Positions 12,718 through 32,036 of a stretch of DNA of 64,000 nt are shown in pieces. A model generated the notes under the pieces. The model searched no databases and was not told the DNA's origin. It worked only from the letters and a program-made list of their open reading frames with translations. The number at the start of each line of letters is the position of its first letter. Within the stretch, counting starts at the first letter, position 1. Source of the stretch: a bacterium (GTDB taxonomy: Bacteria; Patescibacteriota; JABMPQ01; JBDRIV01); contig JBDRIV010000004.1 in assembly GCA_043815505.1 (NCBI GenBank), positions 7,135 to 71,134 on the forward strand. Direction: 5' to 3'. Made by a program: the position numbers and the translations under genes.

Positions 12718-13664
12718 GATCTGTTGGTTTTATACCAGTCAACAAATATTTTAATTCCGTCAGTAAATGAGGTTGACGGTTTAAAGCCAAGTAACTGCTC
12801 GGCTTTTTTTGTATCAGCATAAGTAATAGCCACATCTTCTTTTGGTTTGGGTGATTCTTCAATAATTGCCTTTTTACCTATTGCCTCTTCTATATTGGCA
12901 ATAAATGAGTTCAAATCTATTGGCTTTGAATTTCCTAGATTTATAATTTCGTAAGGAAAGGATTTTTTGGCAGCTGCTATTACACCATTTACAATATCAT
13001 CAATATAAGTCCAGTCCCGTTTCATGGAACCATCACCAAATTTTTTAATGGGTTGGTTTTTTATTATTGCTTCTGTGAATAAATATGGCGCCATATCAGG
13101 GCGACCTTTTGGTCCATAAACGGAAAAAAAGCGCAAACAGGTCGTATTTAAGCCAAATAAATAGTGATAGGTATAGCACATCAACTCCCCTGCTTTTTTT
13201 GTGGCAGCATAGGGAGAGGCGGGACTATTAACATCATCACTTTCTGCAAAAGGAACTTTTTTATTATTACCATAAACTGACGATGAGGAAGCAAAAATAA
13301 AATCCTTCGGTCCATATTTTTTGGCAGCTTCTAAGAGATTTAATGTTCCCATAACATTTACTTGGTTGTAAAGTGTGGGATCGGCAATTGAATTTCGCAC
13401 TCCGGCTCGGGCAGCTAGATGAATTATTTTATCAAATTTGTTTTCGCTAAATACTTCTTCTACAAATTCTCTATTAGTAAAATCTCCTTCTAACAAATGA
13501 AACTTTACGAATTTTTCAAGTTCAGCAGTATTTTGTCTTTTGTATTCTGGATTATAATAATCGTTAAAACAATCTAAACCAAAAACTTCTTCTCCGTTTT
13601 CAAGAAGTTTTTTAGCAACTGAAGAACCAATGAAACCGGCGGCGCCGGTGATTAAATATTTCAT
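12714..13664 (-). CDS. NAD-dependent nucleotide-sugar epimerase (UDP-glucuronate 4-epimerase-like)
   Basis: ITGAAGFIGSSVAKKLL followed by YYNPEYKRQN, a pattern seen in Cap1J/LpsL/GlaKP-type epimerases. The SDR motif YAATKKAGE is present. It lies adjacent to ugd. Confidence 0.7.
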   Translation of the reverse strand: MKYLITGAAGFIGSSVAKKLLENGEEVFGLDCFNDYYNPEYKRQNTAELEKFVKFHLLEGDFTNREFVEEVFSENKFDKIIHLAARAGVRNSIADPTLYNQVNVMGTLNLLEAAKKYGPKDFIFASSSSVYGNNKKVPFAESDDVNSPASPYAATKKAGELMCYTYHYLFGLNTTCLRFFSVYGPKGRPDMAPYLFTEAIIKNQPIKKFGDGSMKRDWTYIDDIVNGVIAAAKKSFPYEIINLGNSKPIDLNSFIANIEEAIGKKAIIEESPKPKEDVAITYADTKKAEQLLGFKPSTSFTDGIKIFVDWYKTNRS

Positions 13665-13665
13665 T

Positions 13666-14739
13666 TTAATTTAAATATTGACTCGGTATTAATTTCTTAT
13701 CTATCATCTTTTCCAATTCCTTGTTATAAACTCTCGATTTTTCTTTAATAAGGTTTCTTATTAACTTAGGTAATTTATACTGTAAAAATCGATATTTACT
13801 ACAAATTCTACTATAATACCTAATAATTTTGAGAATATACTTATCAAATTTGGAATATATGGTTTTAGAATGGTTTTTCAATAACTTAATATTATTTATA
13901 AATTTATCAACATCTTTATTATCATATAACGATCTTGACTTTCTAGCCTGCAATAAAAGATTGTTCATTATCTTACTATCATAACCATAATTTGAACGAA
14001 ATGCTATTTTATGCTTTGCCATTATTATCACAATAAACATTGTTATAAGATCGTATGAAATATTTGTTCTAGGAATATTAATATCGGAGCTGTTGTCAAA
14101 TTTGATACCTGCTATTTTTAATATTTCACTTCCGATATTTGTAATATTACTTTTATAATTTTCGTAAAACAAAATACTAAGCTTGTCTTTATAATGAAAT
14201 GAAAATTCTTTTATTAAATCTACATAATTCCAATCGTTAATATCTATTTGCATGCATCTCTTCCATTTCTCATTATAAGCAAATTTAATATTGGAAAATG
14301 GAAGAAAAACATCTTTTGGATTTAGAAAATAATTTTGATAAACATGCTGTTGATACAAACTTCTTAAAATACTTTCTTGATGCCTTAAAACTATGATTAT
14401 TCTCGCATTTGGAAATATTGCTTTAATAAACTTTAGTCTTTTTTTGTAGTCAAACCTTAACATCCTTAGAGATAGTGTTTCTAATGATATTAATATATTC
14501 TTCTGCTTAATCTTTTTTTCTTGATTTTCTATAACATTCTTTAGTAATTCTATGTCATCTTCTTTAAACATATCAAAATCCACAAGTTTTATTGCTTGTT
14601 TGAGTGAATTAAGTATTACCAGAGGGTTATAGATTGTAGAATTATTATTGAGTCTTGAGAAAAAATGTTTTTGAATTGCTGTAGTGCCGGTTTTTGGTAA
14701 TCCAATATGAAGTATATAATTCTTCATGTTTTGATTCAT
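13666..14739 (-). CDS. Sulfotransferase-like P-loop protein
   Basis: N-terminal HIGLPKTGTTAIQ (5'-PSB-like PKxGTT) and a later IIIVLRHQESILRSLY region (3'-PB-like). The rest of the protein is divergent. Confidence 0.45.
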   Translation of the reverse strand: MNQNMKNYILHIGLPKTGTTAIQKHFFSRLNNNSTIYNPLVILNSLKQAIKLVDFDMFKEDDIELLKNVIENQEKKIKQKNILISLETLSLRMLRFDYKKRLKFIKAIFPNARIIIVLRHQESILRSLYQQHVYQNYFLNPKDVFLPFSNIKFAYNEKWKRCMQIDINDWNYVDLIKEFSFHYKDKLSILFYENYKSNITNIGSEILKIAGIKFDNSSDINIPRTNISYDLITMFIVIIMAKHKIAFRSNYGYDSKIMNNLLLQARKSRSLYDNKDVDKFINNIKLLKNHSKTIYSKFDKYILKIIRYYSRICSKYRFLQYKLPKLIRNLIKEKSRVYNKELEKMIDKKLIPSQYLN

Positions 14740-25737: not shown

Positions 25738-28700
25738 TCACTGAATTAGACCTACAGCTGAAATTCCACCTCTAAAATAGTCTTCAAAAGCAAAGAACTG
25801 CAGACTATTTTCCCCACCACCAGTATTAAAAGTTCTAACTTGTGGTCCACCCGAAGCATTGGGACCAGTTATCACACCAGGCGTTCCATAATATGTTAGG
25901 GGTACAAAATCTATATTGGCACCCGCTTCAACCCCTTGAGGGTAAGCTCTAAATTCTGCCAATTGATTTCGTTCATTGTTATAACGATAAATTTTTGTCC
26001 AAGCTTCTCCATTTCTAAGTTGACTAACAGCAATTTCATCTTTGCCATCAGAGTCGGCGTCAACCGTGGCTACATCTACTCCGGTTCGAGAATCGGGATG
26101 AAAAGCATAAAACTGAATTGGTTTAAGAGCACCATTGGCTTCAAAAACTCTGATTTGGGGACCGCCACCAGTACCGGCGCCAACAATAACTTCTTCTTTG
26201 TTATCAGCGTCAATATCTCCCATAGCCACAGTGGCTCCAATTTCTAATCCGGGAGCAAAAGCTCGCCACTCACCTACTACAGTTTGTTCATCGTTATAAC
26301 GATAAACTTTAACCCAAGCTTCTCCGTTAGCAAATTGGGAAGCGGCAATTTCATCTTTACCGTCATTGTCAATATCACCACAGGCTACATCAACCCCAGT
26401 CCGGGAATCAGAATGAAAGGCAAAAAATTGAATTGGCTTAACCGAACCATTACTTTCAAAAACTCTAATTTGCGGACCGCCACCAGTACCGGCACCAGCA
26501 ATTATTTCTTCTTGACCATCACCATCAATATCACCGGAAGCTAGACGAACACCACCACGAAAGTTTTCGGCATAGGCATAAAATCTTGTTTCTTCTTGTC
26601 CTAAGTTGTTGAAAACTTTTATTTCTGGTGTGGCTCCAGCTCCACGAGCTACAGCAATTTTGTAATTAACTGTTATATTTTCACCACCACTTCCGTTATT
26701 TGGTGGCTTATTGGTATCTTGAGGCGGATCTACAACTGGCAAACTTGCTTTCACCTCACCATTAATTTCTAAAATCATGACCGAATGAGCGGGAATTCTT
26801 AAATCAATTGAATTGCCAGAAAATGATTGTCTAGATTCTGAAACTTGAACCTTAGTTATGCTTTCATTATGAGCATAAATGCTGGGACCATTTAAACTGT
26901 AAATTGTAACTTGTCTGTTTGAATTAAAATGGTCAATACCAATATCAGCCTGCATGGCAGTGTTGGGATGTTTGTTTATAATTAACAAATAAATCTTATC
27001 ACCAGATCTGGAAGCATAACTGGTAACATATTTGTTTTTGCTTAAAGCCGGTAAATTTCTAAATTGTCCTACCGAATATTTTGGACTACCTGTTACAGTA
27101 GAAGCTATAGCTTTATTTCCGTGATGTTCATTTACCAAACTGACAGCTAAAGCAGATGGTCTGGGATCACCGTTGTCTTTAAAAGCACCCCAGTGACTAC
27201 CAAAAACAGAAATTCCGTGAAACATACCAGCCGTAACTCCTTCCTGTTGCATTGCGCCCAGTAAATCAGCTGTCGCTATTCCATAGGCTAAACTACGACC
27301 AAGATTCTCATCACCGGTGTTAAATTCTGTAACCAAAACTTCCAACTCACTTGTTCTATTGCCATAGCGTCTGGCAATATCATTCAATCTATCAACTACC
27401 CCCATTCCTTGTCCGTAGGGAGTAGGATAATTTTTTTGAAAGCTTCTGGCTGAAGCCATCAACTGATGATAGCTTTCACCACCAATGCCATAAAAAGGAT
27501 AATAATGTACCGCCACAAAATCTATTTGATTGTTGGCTTCTTGAAATAAAACTCTTTCCCAATTAGCAACCGAATTATCCAACGCCACGTGCGCTCCAAT
27601 TTTTATGGACGGATCAACCGCCTTCATGGCACTAGAGAATTGTTTTACGGTTTGAGCATATTTAGAAGCCGTCATGGTGGCATCATCCCAGATGTAGTGT
27701 TCATTACCTATTTCCCAATACTTAATATGGCGATTTTCTACAATATTTAATTGGCGAACTAAATTGGCGGCATTCGTAGGAGTTCCTTTGGTATTGGCCA
27801 CCATTACAATTGGGCTATTTGTTTCGTCTGCTAAATCTAGGGCCGATTCAAAATCTCGCACTCCCCAAGGCTTGCCAGAATACGTTGGTTGACGTTGTTC
27901 TGCTCGCCAAATAAATCTGTAATTATTTAAAGTATTTTGAGAGCGAGCCGCAATTCCTATATAACCTTGATCAAATGGATTTCCAGCGGCCACCGGTTTT
28001 ACATCAACCTCAAATTTGTAATTGCGCCAATTTTTTAATCCGGCGCGTCTTAAAACAAAAGGAATTTTTCCTTCGTGAACATAGCGTCCATTTCCACTAG
28101 TCCAAGTTCCAGTATTTCTATAATAAGGAATATCGCCATTACTCCATTCAGAATCATCACTATCATTAAACAAGTCTTGATATAAAACTTCGTCGTTGGC
28201 CAAATTGGTAATTCTGACATTATTAAATATAACTTTCTCATTATCAGAACTAATTAAACCAATATCTCCAGTTGAAAAAGTTGAATCGGAATCAGAAAAT
28301 ACTACTTTGTTATCAATATATAATCTTAAACTTGATCCATTAACTCTAAATTCTAAATGATATTCTTGGCCGGGATTATAAGTTACATTGTCAGAATCTA
28401 AAACATAATATTTTCCATCTACAATTTTAACGAGCATTCTGGCACCCGGATCGTAAGGAGCAAAAATTCTTACTGCCCCAGCTGGATAATCTTCCAAGGC
28501 TTCATTTAAATTATCTTTATTAAAAAGTTCTGGATCAGAACTAAAACCAGCAACCTTACTATCTATGGAATTACCAATGTCTAAAGGGTTAACTCTAATT
28601 TTAATATTTTGGGTAGCGCGAGAATCGTGCGTTAGAGTAATTACCGCTATGATTAAAATAAGCAAACCAATTTTTAGAAAAAACAAAATCTCCCATTCGA

Positions 28701-28791
28701 CAAAGGGAGTGGCAATAATATGCAAAAATTGCCGTACCAATTTATAAATCTGTCGACCGATTTCTTTAATTTTTTTCCATAAATAAGCCAT
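25738..28791 (-). CDS. Large membrane-anchored surface protein with a clan GH-A glycoside hydrolase-like domain and C-terminal FG-GAP (integrin-alpha-type) repeats
   Basis: It has an N-terminal TM helix. The clan GH-A acid/base motif YWEIGNEHY and the nucleophile motif VTEFN are present. Three C-terminal FG-GAP-like blades carry GDIDGDGQEEI / CGDIDNDGKDEI / MGDIDADNKEEV. Confidence 0.7.
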   Translation of the reverse strand: MAYLWKKIKEIGRQIYKLVRQFLHIIATPFVEWEILFFLKIGLLILIIAVITLTHDSRATQNIKIRVNPLDIGNSIDSKVAGFSSDPELFNKDNLNEALEDYPAGAVRIFAPYDPGARMLVKIVDGKYYVLDSDNVTYNPGQEYHLEFRVNGSSLRLYIDNKVVFSDSDSTFSTGDIGLISSDNEKVIFNNVRITNLANDEVLYQDLFNDSDDSEWSNGDIPYYRNTGTWTSGNGRYVHEGKIPFVLRRAGLKNWRNYKFEVDVKPVAAGNPFDQGYIGIAARSQNTLNNYRFIWRAEQRQPTYSGKPWGVRDFESALDLADETNSPIVMVANTKGTPTNAANLVRQLNIVENRHIKYWEIGNEHYIWDDATMTASKYAQTVKQFSSAMKAVDPSIKIGAHVALDNSVANWERVLFQEANNQIDFVAVHYYPFYGIGGESYHQLMASARSFQKNYPTPYGQGMGVVDRLNDIARRYGNRTSELEVLVTEFNTGDENLGRSLAYGIATADLLGAMQQEGVTAGMFHGISVFGSHWGAFKDNGDPRPSALAVSLVNEHHGNKAIASTVTGSPKYSVGQFRNLPALSKNKYVTSYASRSGDKIYLLIINKHPNTAMQADIGIDHFNSNRQVTIYSLNGPSIYAHNESITKVQVSESRQSFSGNSIDLRIPAHSVMILEINGEVKASLPVVDPPQDTNKPPNNGSGGENITVNYKIAVARGAGATPEIKVFNNLGQEETRFYAYAENFRGGVRLASGDIDGDGQEEIIAGAGTGGGPQIRVFESNGSVKPIQFFAFHSDSRTGVDVACGDIDNDGKDEIAASQFANGEAWVKVYRYNDEQTVVGEWRAFAPGLEIGATVAMGDIDADNKEEVIVGAGTGGGPQIRVFEANGALKPIQFYAFHPDSRTGVDVATVDADSDGKDEIAVSQLRNGEAWTKIYRYNNERNQLAEFRAYPQGVEAGANIDFVPLTYYGTPGVITGPNASGGPQVRTFNTGGGENSLQFFAFEDYFRGGISAVGLIQ
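25940..26550. repeat. Two tandem ~300-bp near-identical DNA repeats inside the FG-GAP region of the 1017-aa gene
   Basis: The antisense ORF-track fragments 25936..26247 and 26284..26544 translate to near-identical peptides. The sense-strand protein repeats IAGAGTGGGPQIRVFESNGSVKPIQFFAFHSDSRTGVDVACGDIDNDGKDEI as IVGAGTGGGPQIRVFEANGALKPIQFYAFHPDSRTGVDVATVDADSDGKDEI. Confidence 0.6.
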
Positions 28792-28893: not shown

Positions 28894-28931
28894 AAAAAAT
28901 CCCCCCAATGACTTGTGAGTCTTGGGGGGGG
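28894..28931 (-). terminator. Rho-independent terminator (GC-rich hairpin plus U-run) downstream of the high-GC gene
   Basis: On the minus strand the sequence reads CCCCCCCCAAGACT-CACA-AGTCATTGGGGGG followed by ATTTTTTAT. It lies about 45 nt after the stop at 28975. Confidence 0.7.
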
Positions 28932-28974
28932 TTGAGGCGATTAACCTCTAGTTTGAAGGATAAGTGGAATTAAT

Positions 28975-29952
28975 TTAACTAGGACCGACACCTTGATTGG
29001 TATCAACGGCCAAGGTAATAACTGGACCCTTGTCTCCGCCCCAAGGATTAAGATCCCAGCCGTAGAGGAGAATTTCATCCATACTGAACACGCTCATTCT
29101 GAATTTGCACAACACGTGTTCGTTGTTTTCACCTCCGATGTGAATCATAACTCCATTTTTACTTCTCTGTAAAAGAAGTAATCCCCACACATATGGGTGG
29201 TAATTACTGGTGTTCCAATTACCGGGAAAAGTATACAGATGGCTGGTATTGTAGAATCCACCACCTGTATCAATATTAACGTCGCGAACCCAGGCCTCAA
29301 CCAACCCATCTGTGCGGGAGCGGAAGCTGTAAGCCATGTAGAACAGCCGGAAATGGTCCTGCGTTTCCTGGTTGATGACCGCCAGCTTTTCCGACAACCG
29401 ATAGATAAGAAAGGATGGTGGTGCTGACCAAGTCAGCACGACTCCCATTCCCTCTTGCAAGCGATACGGGCCGTCCCACTCATGCGAGGTACCCAGTTCC
29501 GGATAGCACTGTTGTACCTCTCGTTGCCAGAACGGGGAGTAATCGCCATATCCATCAATCAAGGTGTTCATCGGAACATTAACTGTTGCGTTAATGTTTA
29601 TCGGCTGCATATCATACAGCGACATGTTTGCCGGCACTGATACAATCCGATTAATTCCATAAGACATCAATCCTTTTTGAGGACCGACGTACTCTTCCTT
29701 AACCGTCTGCATCGTATCCACGTTATACCACATCACCAGAACGGTGTCGGTATAATTTACCCGTGGGAAATACCCAACAATGTCCTGGCCGGTTTCGGTG
29801 AAGACCTGGTCGTAGGACCGATCGGCCTTAACCATCTGAACAAATTCATTTTCCACACCCGGCAAGTTGGGCCGAATGAGAGCGGCATTCACGGTTCCCG
29901 TGAACGTGACGACCAAAACGGCCATCAAAGCGATAATCAGTATTCTTTTCAT
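28975..29952 (-). CDS. Secreted hypothetical protein encoded in a high-GC island
   Basis: Signal peptide MKRILIIALMAVLVVTFTGTVNA. The start is the ATG at 29952, preceded by AGGAGA; the ORF track extends it to a GTG at 29976. GC is about 48% against about 31% in the flanks. The gene has its own terminator. Confidence 0.6.
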   Translation of the reverse strand: MKRILIIALMAVLVVTFTGTVNAALIRPNLPGVENEFVQMVKADRSYDQVFTETGQDIVGYFPRVNYTDTVLVMWYNVDTMQTVKEEYVGPQKGLMSYGINRIVSVPANMSLYDMQPININATVNVPMNTLIDGYGDYSPFWQREVQQCYPELGTSHEWDGPYRLQEGMGVVLTWSAPPSFLIYRLSEKLAVINQETQDHFRLFYMAYSFRSRTDGLVEAWVRDVNIDTGGGFYNTSHLYTFPGNWNTSNYHPYVWGLLLLQRSKNGVMIHIGGENNEHVLCKFRMSVFSMDEILLYGWDLNPWGGDKGPVITLAVDTNQGVGPS

Positions 29953-30178
29953 TCTCTTTCTCCTGATTTGCCACACGACGATGGCAAAAGTTGTAGTTGC
30001 AGTCGTACTCGAACAAACTTAGTTTTGCACCTCCTTTCCACTTTTCCTTCAGTTGTAATGAACGTTATTTATTATATTTATTTTTAACAGCACCAGATGG
30101 TACTGTCCTGCCCTTTCTATATTCTTTTTAAACACTTCTTACTGCTTTCAGAAAGAGCTGGATAGTATCACCTATTTT

Positions 30179-31045
30179 TTATTTCCGAGCTTCAACCCAC
30201 ATCACATCACCTAAATTAATATTTACCGTCTTATTTTTTATTCTAAATAGCTTCAGAAATCTCTCAATAATTTTCCCAATCAACTGGCTATAATATTGTG
30301 AAATTCTATAATCAATTAAACCCAGTCTAACCTGGCGACCAACACTTTTCTTTTTACCAATTTCCATATTTTCTTCTTTAAGAATCTTTACTAATGATTT
30401 TTTATTGAACAAAATGAAGTGATCAATTATACACTGACGCCATTTTCTGCCTAAAATTTTAAACCACACTGATCCTGCATCGGGAGTTTCAATAAATATC
30501 ATTCCACCCGATTTCAGAAGTTTAAGTGCGTCTTTTATTACAGCTTTGGGATTTGGTAAATGTTCAACGGTATGAAACAGGGTTATTACATCAAAGCTCT
30601 CTTTGGCAAAATCAGAATCAGACAAAGTTCCTCTAACCACTTTTTGATTAAAGACATCTTTGGCAAATTCTGCTCCTGCTTTAGTTGGTTCAACACCGTA
30701 TGTTTCCCAACCTCTAATTTCTGCTAGCCAGAGAAATAATCCAGAATAACATCCAATATCTAGAATTCTCCCCTTCTCCGGAAAATGTTTTTCAATCTTT
30801 TCCAGTCGATCCAGAAAAGTTTTTTTACGCCAAGGAAATTCTGGGATTTGATCGGCGAAAAGTTTTTTAAACTTATCGCCATCTTCCTTCGTTTCAATTA
30901 AGTCCTCTATATTTCTAGGATTGGCATAATAAACTTTGCAATTTTTACAATGTACAATCCGACCGGCAGGTGAACTTTTTAATCTCACCTTAAAGTCAGA
31001 TGCATCACAAACAGGACAGTTAATTTTTTGTGCTTTAACTGACAT
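30179..31045 (-). CDS. Class I SAM-dependent methyltransferase with N-terminal Zn-ribbon
   Basis: CPVCDAS...CKNCKVYY four-Cys ribbon followed by ILDIGCYSGLF (MT motif I). The probable start is the ATG at 31045; the track starts it at a GTG at 31078. Confidence 0.7.
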   Translation of the reverse strand: MSVKAQKINCPVCDASDFKVRLKSSPAGRIVHCKNCKVYYANPRNIEDLIETKEDGDKFKKLFADQIPEFPWRKKTFLDRLEKIEKHFPEKGRILDIGCYSGLFLWLAEIRGWETYGVEPTKAGAEFAKDVFNQKVVRGTLSDSDFAKESFDVITLFHTVEHLPNPKAVIKDALKLLKSGGMIFIETPDAGSVWFKILGRKWRQCIIDHFILFNKKSLVKILKEENMEIGKKKSVGRQVRLGLIDYRISQYYSQLIGKIIERFLKLFRIKNKTVNINLGDVMWVEARK

Positions 31046-32036
31046 GAGCCTTGGCTTTATTCCAAGCTGCCCAAGCACTTACCTTCACAGGATGTTTTAG
31101 CATGGCAGTTCTAGCTGTACAAATCATCCAATCTTTATCATCAAAAGTTAAAAGCTTGTCTCGCATTTTATCTGCTTTAGCAGAATTCCAAATTTTAGCA
31201 AAACTTTCATCTTTAATATTTCCCATTTTTTCAGAAATAACATTTGAGGGATAAACGAAACCAAGTGGATCCAGAAAGAAAAAATCACCCATAGCTAATG
31301 AAGGAAGTTTTCTTGGCTGATCTTCTAATACGTTATATAGCCCGTCAATAAAATATGCTCTCGCCCATCTTTTCTTGTTCATGGAACGAAGCTCATTTTT
31401 CTTAACATATTCAAATTCTTTTTTGAATTGGTCCAGACGTGCTAACTTTTCGTTTTGCTTCTTGAAATAATGCTCGGAAGACTGTACAACTGCACAGGTA
31501 AATTCTATTCCTTCTTTTACTGCCAGATCATACACCTTACAGAAATGCGCTATGTTTTTGTCTTGCGCAGTAAAAGCGAAACGAATATTTTTTAAACCAA
31601 GTGATTTAACTTCTTGCAAAGTTTTCATTACTTTTTCGTAGCCTCCGGGGACGCCACGAATTTCGTCATGCATTTTGCCAATTCCATCCAGAGAAAAAGC
31701 TATACCAATTTGGGGAACAGTTTTCATGAATCTTTCCATTTGGCGCTTTATCAGTTCTGGTGTAAATCCATTTGTAGAAATTACAATTTCAGGTCCATTA
31801 CAACGTTCGTTGATGGCTTCAATTATTTCTACAATGTCTTGACGCATAAAGGGCTCACCGCCAGAAATGTTGACATATTTCAACGTTTTCGGTAGTTTCT
31901 TGTATTCCTTAGGTTCCATTGTGCCTTTAGTCTGGTCTTTCCAGATATTACACATAGAACACTTCGAATTACACTGGTAAGTAATGGCCAGCACAGCGTC
32001 AATCGGATATGGAGTTTTTGGCTTATTTTTAGACAT
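31035..32036 (-). CDS. Radical SAM enzyme
   Basis: CNSKCSMC (CX3CX2C) near the N-terminus and the GGEPF motif. There is no C-terminal Cys cluster, so it is not a SPASM type. It overlaps the downstream MT by about 11 nt. Confidence 0.75.
   Translation of the reverse strand: MSKNKPKTPYPIDAVLAITYQCNSKCSMCNIWKDQTKGTMEPKEYKKLPKTLKYVNISGGEPFMRQDIVEIIEAINERCNGPEIVISTNGFTPELIKRQMERFMKTVPQIGIAFSLDGIGKMHDEIRGVPGGYEKVMKTLQEVKSLGLKNIRFAFTAQDKNIAHFCKVYDLAVKEGIEFTCAVVQSSEHYFKKQNEKLARLDQFKKEFEYVKKNELRSMNKKRWARAYFIDGLYNVLEDQPRKLPSLAMGDFFFLDPLGFVYPSNVISEKMGNIKDESFAKIWNSAKADKMRDKLLTFDDKDWMICTARTAMLKHPVKVSAWAAWNKAKAHVS

Follow-up and report, generated by a model that had tools for sequence, protein, structure and literature searches.

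The gene at 28975..29952 on the minus strand of the DNA analyzed here (64,000 nucleotides (nt) of contig JBDRIV010000004.1, assembly GCA_043815505.1, positions 7,135 to 71,134; hereafter the window) forms, together with its untranslated regions (UTR), a GC-rich island in an AT-rich Patescibacteria-like genome. The island spans ~28894..30051 on the minus strand (~1.16 kb) and consists of a ~100-nt leader, a canonical Shine-Dalgarno (SD) sequence, one open reading frame (ORF) with a Sec signal and the strongest terminator of the window. On balance, it is probably a self-contained, moron-like cassette that was acquired horizontally, within a surface-glycan locus, from an SD-using organism of higher GC content. 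Horizontal acquisition is favored because the base composition, the codon choice, the amino acid composition and the translation signals all differ from those of the host. The cassette would be an ordinary horizontally acquired accessory gene in kind, unusual mainly by its single relative among ~15 billion public proteins. This relative, P0002, is encoded on the contig L001. The features of the island, all on the minus strand, are the following.

28894..28929, minus strand: intrinsic terminator CCCCCCCCAAGACU-CACA-AGUCAUUGGGGGG followed by U6, -20.6 kcal/mol.
28946..28962, minus strand: conserved 3' UTR motif TATCCTTCAAACTAGAG, 15/17 identical to the motif right after the stop codon in L001.
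28954..28969, minus strand: 3' arm of an inverted repeat, UUCCACUUAUCCUUCA in the mRNA, 5 nt past the stop codon.
28975..29952, minus strand: ORF of 325 amino acids (aa) with its ATG at 29952, corresponding to the NCBI call MFH1509296.1 / ABIE68_03975.
29884..29952, minus strand: Sec-type signal peptide, residues 1-23, with MKR, a hydrophobic core and VNA/A (the slash marks the cleavage site), lacking a lipobox Cys.
29959..29964, minus strand: SD sequence AGGAGA, 6 nt before the ATG; L001 has AAGGAGAGAGACG-ATG at the equivalent site.
29967..29988, minus strand: leader hairpin UUUGCCA-N8-UGGCAAA, directly 5' of the SD sequence; the hairpin of L001 also directly precedes its SD sequence.
30028..30038, minus strand: GAAAGGAGGTG, an 11-nt complement of the anti-SD, ~76-86 nt 5' of the ATG; GGAAAGGAGG is kept in L001.
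30030..30051, minus strand: conserved 5' motif TGAAGGAAAAGTGGAAAGGAGG at the 5' limit of the GC island, 19/22 identical to positions 23-45 of L001.
30036..30051, minus strand: 5' arm of the inverted repeat, TGAAGGAAAAGTGGAA, in the leader; the window holds two copies only.

The ORF has a GC content of 0.479, with 0.515, 0.368 and 0.552 at the first, second and third codon positions (GC1, GC2 and GC3), in a window whose overall GC content is 0.345. The GC3 of the remaining 62 long ORFs is 0.242±0.033 with a maximum of 0.321, which places the island gene at z=9.3. Its synonymous codons, scored by log-likelihood against the codon usage of the window, deviate at z=-6.8, and the tetranucleotide composition of the 1-kb window at 29001 reaches z=6.0, the top of all such windows; in both measures the island ORF is the most extreme of the 64 kb. 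The initial annotation of this DNA, made from the letters, had estimated ~48% GC with GC-rich third positions, and the sliding-window, codon and tetranucleotide computations find this deviation significant. The island as a whole has a GC content of 0.472, compared with 0.343±0.030 in the other windows of 1158 bp (z=4.3). Its edges are sharp at a resolution of 50 nt: the GC content goes up at ~28900 and down at ~30050, to 0.26 past 30051. The upstream gap of 226 nt had been described as a low-GC spacer of 200 bp. This description suits its distal part (30052..30178, GC 0.315), whereas the proximal ~100 nt (29953..30051, GC 0.434) belong to the island.

Two other readings of the island DNA were discarded. 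A non-coding RNA finds only sub-threshold chance matches in Rfam, while the ORF is intact, is conserved at the protein level in both copies and shows a codon-position-specific GC content. An antisense ORF of 336 aa is present in L001, as expected at a GC3 of 0.81, and is missing from the window.

The translation signals of the island are equally foreign to its surroundings. The SD sequence AGGAGA, recognized from the outset, belongs to a type hardly used by the host: a GGAG or GAGG core lies at most 25 nt from the start in only ~4 of the 62 host ORFs, a fraction that is approximate because the starts were taken from the longest ORFs. The core is absent before the genes for EF-Tu (56418), EF-G (58681), S7 (59260), S12 (59862) and SecY (45189). 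Farther upstream, GAAAGGAGGTG is complementary at 11/11 positions to the standard bacterial 16S rRNA 3' tail, which may not be that of the host, with a predicted pairing energy of -19.9 kcal/mol. It is the only complement of this tail of at least 9 nt in the 64 kb. No ATG, GTG or TTG lies 4-12 nt 3' of this element in the window, and a TTG at 13 nt opens an out-of-frame ORF of 56 aa (29846..30016, minus strand) that overlaps the start of the island gene. In L001, an ATG placed 9 nt past GGAAAGGAGG opens a 24-codon upstream ORF, MSTPPAKREDLSREMSETAHQADA (54..128 of L001), with no equivalent in the window.

A leader of this type is reminiscent of the STAB-SD of Bacillus thuringiensis cry3A, where a bound 30S subunit blocks RNase J1 (Agaisse & Lereclus 1996, reviewed in PMC4113751). 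In both cases an SD-like element that perfectly complements the 16S 3' end is located far 5' of the start (~-80 here; near the -129 5' end in cry3A) and is combined with a very stable 3' hairpin, comparable to the 'retroregulators' formed by cry terminators; the element of the island, too, seems not to drive initiation of the main ORF. On the other hand, SD sequences are rare in the host lineage, and the motif of L001 could instead serve the 24-codon upstream ORF. The cry3A STAB-SD reportedly reads exactly GAAAGGAGG. The same string is the full SD sequence of some classes of Actinomycetota and Chloroflexota (PMC10783764).

At the other end of the transcript, the terminator is the most stable of the 694 hairpins that precede T runs in the window, the runner-up having -14.1 kcal/mol. 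The stem contains 12 pairs and one bulge and is closed by a 4-nt loop. The initial annotation had presented it as a textbook terminator with an 8-bp G/C clamp; its exceptional strength and its U6 tract stand, whereas the clamp is replaced by 6 G-C pairs that derive from homopolymer runs (C8/G6). The leader and the 3' UTR are further related by TGAAGGAWAAGTGGAA, which is present exactly twice in the window (30036..30051 on the minus strand and 28954..28969 on the plus strand) with 15/16 matching positions, a repeat between the flanks that is equalled by 1/2000 shuffles. The two arms are predicted to form an RNA duplex of 15 bp with one A·A mismatch and -20.2 kcal/mol. In L001 the pairing shrinks to the core UUGAAGG/CCUUCAA (7-8 nt, -9.4 kcal/mol), for which 1455/2000 shuffles are as good, and the two sequences lack the compensatory changes that would prove the pairing of the arms.

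Base-pairing between the 5' and 3' UTR is known in Bacillus subtilis hbs (PMC5737220) and Staphylococcus aureus icaR (PMC3868564), and the engineered compensatory hbs construct LRIcomp has -17 kcal/mol (PMC5737220), close to the -20.2 kcal/mol of the island duplex. The island resembles these systems in that a pyrimidine-rich, anti-SD-like segment of the 3' UTR complements a purine-rich segment of the 5' UTR. It differs from them in that the pairing is predicted from complementarity and is reduced to 8 bp in the homologue.

From these elements a mode of action can be proposed. The cassette would have been transferred from a GC-richer, SD-using organism together with its own untranslated regions. 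By analogy with the STAB-SD, the 11-nt anti-SD complement of the leader would retain a parked 30S subunit and stop the 5'-to-3' decay of the transcript. The 16-nt pairing of the 5' UTR with the 3' UTR, together with the strong terminator, would shield the other mRNA end, and the result would be a long-lived mRNA. Export of the product would go through Sec, with cleavage behind VNA, and would yield an extracellular, acidic and aromatic-rich protein of ~34.5 kDa, possibly rich in beta structure according to unreliable models, which most plausibly would bind or modify a glycan or the cell surface.

The product of the gene had been annotated as a secreted protein, and its N-terminus agrees with this proposal. 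The signal peptide MKRILIIALMAVLVVTFTGTVNA/A is formed by MKR, a 16-residue core ILIIALMAVLVVTFTG and TVNA/A, with small residues at -3 and -1. The hydropathy is 2.3-2.4 across the first 20 residues, and no transmembrane-like stretch follows as read by hydropathy rather than by a dedicated predictor. The mature protein is acidic (302 aa, 34.5 kDa, isoelectric point of 4.9). Compared with the host proteome it is poor in Lys (2.3% vs 8.8%) and Ile (4.6% vs 8.8%) and rich in Trp (3.0% vs 1.1%), and Pro, Gly and Val are raised as well. The absence of recognizable motifs was also borne out. Pfam (E<=10), NCBIfam and PADLOC give no match to the island protein, Pfam and NCBIfam are also blank for P0002, and a PDB search with the single sequence and with a two-sequence profile returns nothing significant (best E 0.35). 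The one match in PHROGs (E 0.33) is at chance level and falls on the signal peptide. Neither of the two proteins matches a profile or a solved structure of the known families of glycan-active enzymes or lectins. The AlphaFold2 models are unusable, with predicted local distance difference test scores of 33 (single sequence) and 31 (two-sequence alignment), and the sole structural hint that they contain, beta strands in the C-terminal half, was not relied on.

The residues common to the island protein and P0002 include H157, W159-D160, L165-Q-E-G168, A177-P-P-S-F181, D199-H200, R202, E219, W221, R223, G244-N-W246 and V255-W-G257. These residues are compatible with an enzyme or with a site that binds sugars and prove neither. 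A role of the product in binding or modifying a glycan, proposed from context and composition only, is put forward as a tentative and rather doubtful assignment. The foreign glycan lyase or hydrolase considered plausible in the initial annotation is neither supported nor contradicted by the family, PDB and modeling results. A link to the neighboring radical-SAM gene through a sulfatase and its anSME-type maturation was considered and rejected, since the C/S-x-P/A-x-R motif is absent, by eye, from the island protein and from P0002, and the radical-SAM protein matches no specific family.

The distribution of the gene is extremely narrow. Among 1.84 billion cluster representatives, which stand for the ~15 billion proteins, an exhaustive HMMER search identifies P0002 (324 aa, 32% identity, E 2.4e-20) as the one true relative, and each of the two proteins is a singleton in its own cluster. 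P0002 also carries a signal peptide, ending in ATA/A, followed by a mature part of 302 aa. No further homologues were found by a word search of 5.8 billion clusters with two queries, in the species-representative genomes, in the JGI metagenomes, in IMG/VR or in phage and plasmid records. Two other candidates were set aside. P0003 (E 2.9e-4) is a six-fold repeat protein whose match is not reproduced with P0002 and is spurious, its score being inflated because of the repeats. The match of P0004 (E 8.3e-4) covers mainly residues 12-63, the signal peptide included.

The gene of P0002 is located on L001, a 1460-bp Logan contig from run SRR22387768, with a GC content of 0.597 and a GC3 of 0.81. On the 3' side, the gene has its own GC-rich terminator, which ends in a T7 tract and gives way to AT-rich DNA. 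The 5' motif, TGAAGGGAATGGGGAAAGGAGG in L001, is equalled in score by 0/1000 dinucleotide shuffles, and the 3' motif, TATCCTTCAATCCAGAG in L001, by 7/1000. Both are better conserved between the window and L001 than the protein. A wider family of such leaders was looked for in IMG/VR through the 5' motif, with no match. At the end of L001 (1380..1460, 3' of the terminator), a promoter-like TTGCCA-N18-TAAAAT is followed by GAGAGAGAGACAAA-ATG AGA AAA CGA ATA ATC, the start of a next gene (MRKRII...) whose purine-rich ribosome-binding site is identical to that of P0002. This gene may be a tandem paralogue of P0002.

The same sequencing run contains the closest relative of the gene that lies 5' of the island. 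The 5' neighbors are a radical-SAM/SPASM gene (31035..32036) and a Zn-ribbon methyltransferase gene (30179..31078). The closest relative of the methyltransferase, P0006, is 64% identical, the second best being 36% identical, and is encoded on the contig L060 of SRR22387768. L060 carries both genes, overlapping as in the window (30174..31790), and its radical-SAM protein is 62% identical. The two stretches share 64% nt identity over 1457 bp, and L060 has a GC content of 0.40 and a GC3 of 0.39-0.47. L060 ends 58 nt past the stop codon of the methyltransferase and L001 begins 148 nt before P0002, in relation to a gap of 226 nt in the window. By these lengths the contigs may be adjacent; their sequences have no overlap, and the tail of L060 is unlike the gap of the window. 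P0002 probably belongs to a sibling organism, in which the radical-SAM/methyltransferase pair would be its neighbor as well. The pair itself matches no specific NCBIfam family and may form an uncharacterized module of two genes within the glycan locus. In L061 (GCA_030603885.1), a syntenic locus that is more distantly related, the genes are ordered DUF5656-HtrA-Wzz-Wzy-GT2-methyltransferase-GT4, and no island-type gene separates the methyltransferase from GT4. Its methyltransferase is 36% identical, and to judge from this comparison L061 would be weak evidence for an insertion.

Several observations weigh against a transfer of the kind proposed here. The donor is not identifiable, no relative beyond P0002 existing among the ~15 billion proteins. 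The joint presence of P0002 and L060 in one run may mean that the gene is older than the separation of the two lineages; amelioration should then already have removed the GC3 excess. The radical-SAM and methyltransferase proteins have diverged to 62-64% aa identity, and the synonymous sites of the two lineages must be saturated. The GC1 and GC2 of the island gene are below the values implied by its GC3 through regressions that Lawrence & Ochman reportedly gave in 1997, the reverse of what is expected when a gene received from a high-GC donor has been ameliorated in part; the amino acid bias of the family itself may account for this. The window contains no tRNA, and no integrase ORF, convincing target-site duplication or flanking direct repeat is found near the island. 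The distal gap (30052..30178) has no sigma-70-like site scoring at least 9/12, and a lone TATAAT is present; no consensus promoter occurs in the whole gap of 226 nt, and the nearest scored promoter-like site (30267..30240, 10/12) is inside the methyltransferase gene. The window holds no rRNA gene, so the anti-SD tail of the host 16S is represented by the standard bacterial sequence. Finally, the whole basis for assigning a function to the protein is its context and composition.

The strongest competitor of a transfer is a lineage-specific and vertically inherited gene, which would already have been beside the radical-SAM/methyltransferase pair in the common ancestor with the SRR22387768 organism and which selection would keep GC-rich, for instance for a structured, RNase-resistant and long-lived mRNA. 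The sole homologue and the best methyltransferase relative come from one run, L060 is truly syntenic, and the GC3 margin over the background is similar in both places (+0.31 in the window, ~+0.35-0.4 in SRR22387768). The strong conservation of the untranslated motifs, the several stabilizer-like features of the mRNA, and GC1 and GC2 values that stay near those of the host despite the high GC3 also agree with it. On the other hand, L001 and L060 have no common sequence that would join them, the tail of L060 differs from the gap of the window, the highly expressed genes of the host (EF-Tu and ribosomal proteins) show no rise in GC3, and the Lys- and Ile-poor protein looks foreign as well. We know of no precedent for selection keeping GC3 0.3 above the level of a bacterial genome, which counts against vertical descent. 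Altogether, this explanation is considered unlikely.

A more demanding form of it, which we regard as quite improbable, holds that the gene is lineage-restricted and was never recently transferred. Two diverged AT-rich siblings (~63% aa identity in the neighbor genes) would then hold it 0.3-0.4 above their own GC3, and an ultra-stable mRNA would be selected strongly enough to override the mutational bias across the gene. The conserved UTR motifs would correspond to a ribosome parking site, to the pairing of the 5' and 3' ends and to an exceptionally strong terminator. If L060 and L001 are adjacent, GC3 lies ~0.3-0.4 above the local level in both lineages, unlike simple amelioration. Three explanations would fit such a shared excess: the gene was replaced repeatedly at a single site out of a GC-rich pool not yet sampled, selection keeps its mRNA GC-rich, or the two contigs co-occur in the sample by chance.

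The inverted repeat raises the question of a non-autonomous mobile cassette, i.e. a mobile insertion cassette or a miniature inverted-repeat transposable element (MITE) with cargo, bounded by 16-nt terminal inverted repeats and mobilized by a transposase encoded elsewhere. The 15/16 repeat does lie at both ends of the leader and ORF, is unique in the window and is rarely matched by shuffles, a 3-bp direct repeat (AAC in the mRNA sense) abuts both arms, and the core TGAAGG/CCTTCA is found at both ends of L001 too. On the other hand, no other copies of the repeat were found in the 64 kb, in the 61 fetched loci or in IMG/VR, and there is no transposase nearby. The 3-bp flank match has a chance expectation of ~2%, and the repeat of L001, with 7-8 nt, does not reach significance by itself. 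Since the conserved 3' motif and the GC-rich terminator reach past the repeat, the conserved unit exceeds the one that the repeat bounds. This origin is held to be very improbable.

An assembly or binning artefact, by which a fragment of a GC-richer organism was spliced into the contig, would account for the abrupt switch of composition within a metagenome-assembled contig and is extremely unlikely: both flanks belong to the same AT-rich genome in one contig of 255 kb, the edges fall on functional boundaries (leader motif and terminator) rather than on arbitrary points, and an independent assembly from another sample has the same join of a GC-rich family member to AT-rich DNA within one contig.

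A transferred cassette thus remains the favored explanation, with a restriction. The foreign origin claimed in the initial annotation gains from the amino acid make-up and the SD signals, which extend it beyond GC content. However, since P0002 is probably found in a sibling and is GC-rich there too, a recent acquisition by this genome alone is not established.

The closest known parallel of such a cassette is the phage moron, as defined in PMC3594210 for genes of the HK97 gene 15 type. The island shares with it the single gene placed between neighbors, the GC content unlike that of the flanks, and its own terminator and translation signals, and it is 'more DNA' in relation to the related locus L061. 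It differs from it by its location in a chromosomal polysaccharide locus among polysaccharide-synthesis and housekeeping genes, by the absence of significant matches to phage, IMG/VR or PHROGs sequences and by the lack of an evident promoter of its own. With mobile insertion cassettes and MITE the island shares the terminal inverted repeats (28954..28969 and 30036..30051), and it departs from them by a flank match of only 3 bp and by the lack of extra copies. It also recalls genomic islands and integron cassettes by its atypical composition in a variable surface-structure locus; unlike these, it has no tRNA, integrase or direct repeats and comprises one gene only, and its 3' hairpin is a plain terminator lacking the attC-type features of integron cassettes.

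The nearest detectable relatives of this AT-rich genome are metagenome-assembled genomes of Parcubacteria, Patescibacteria and Saccharibacteria. A block of ribosomal protein, EF-Tu and SecY genes is located at 43-59 kb. The glycan locus proposed in the initial annotation is real: a cell-envelope polysaccharide locus at 12-42 kb surrounds the island and contains rml-type genes, GDP-mannose dehydratase/epimerase, UDP-glucose dehydrogenase, a sulfotransferase, several glycosyltransferase genes (GT4/GT2), an aminotransferase, Wzy, a chain-length determinant and two HtrA proteases. Surface-glycan loci are prone to gene exchange. The sulfotransferase-like gene (13666..14739, minus strand) has the lowest GC content in the window (0.242), and around it the windows that start at 13501 and 13751 rank next to the island as tetranucleotide outliers (z=2.2-2.9). 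This gene may be a second compositional oddity of the same locus.

On the 5' side, the distal gap 3' of the methyltransferase gene (30084..30183) contains two hairpins, one of which is ACAGUACC-AUCU-GGUGCUGU and has no U-tract; the matches to Rfam microRNA families are at chance level. These hairpins may be a weak terminator or a processing site for the upstream operon. On the 3' side lies the gene of a 1017-aa protein (25738..28791, minus strand) with an N-terminal hydrophobic segment and clear C-terminal FG-GAP repeats. Its weak matches (LamG/3-keto-disaccharide-hydrolase-like and GH39/GH53/ArfA-like) are all below the cut-offs of Pfam and NCBIfam. A genome scan with this protein returned only FG-GAP domain relatives in other Patescibacteria, with at most 53% identity, and metagenomes scanned with the N-terminal 700 aa gave no match. 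Probed with the island family and with this neighbor, the collection of species-representative genomes contains no close sibling genome.

In its ordinary reading, the island records gene flow into a Patescibacteria-like genome, and its product is a candidate surface or host-interaction protein. Cultured bacteria of this group grow attached to other bacteria, Actinobacteria among them. Such hosts are GC-rich and use SD sequences. What lifts the case slightly above routine is a family of two members among ~15 billion predicted proteins, each a GC-rich island next to AT-rich DNA, with untranslated motifs in common. The island also brings SD-based signals, a STAB-SD-like element and 5'/3' complementarity into a genome that hardly uses SD sequences, and it may serve as a probe of the function of the anti-SD tail in such organisms. 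If the GC excess were instead kept vertically, the family would offer an unusual example of an mRNA whose composition is under selection.

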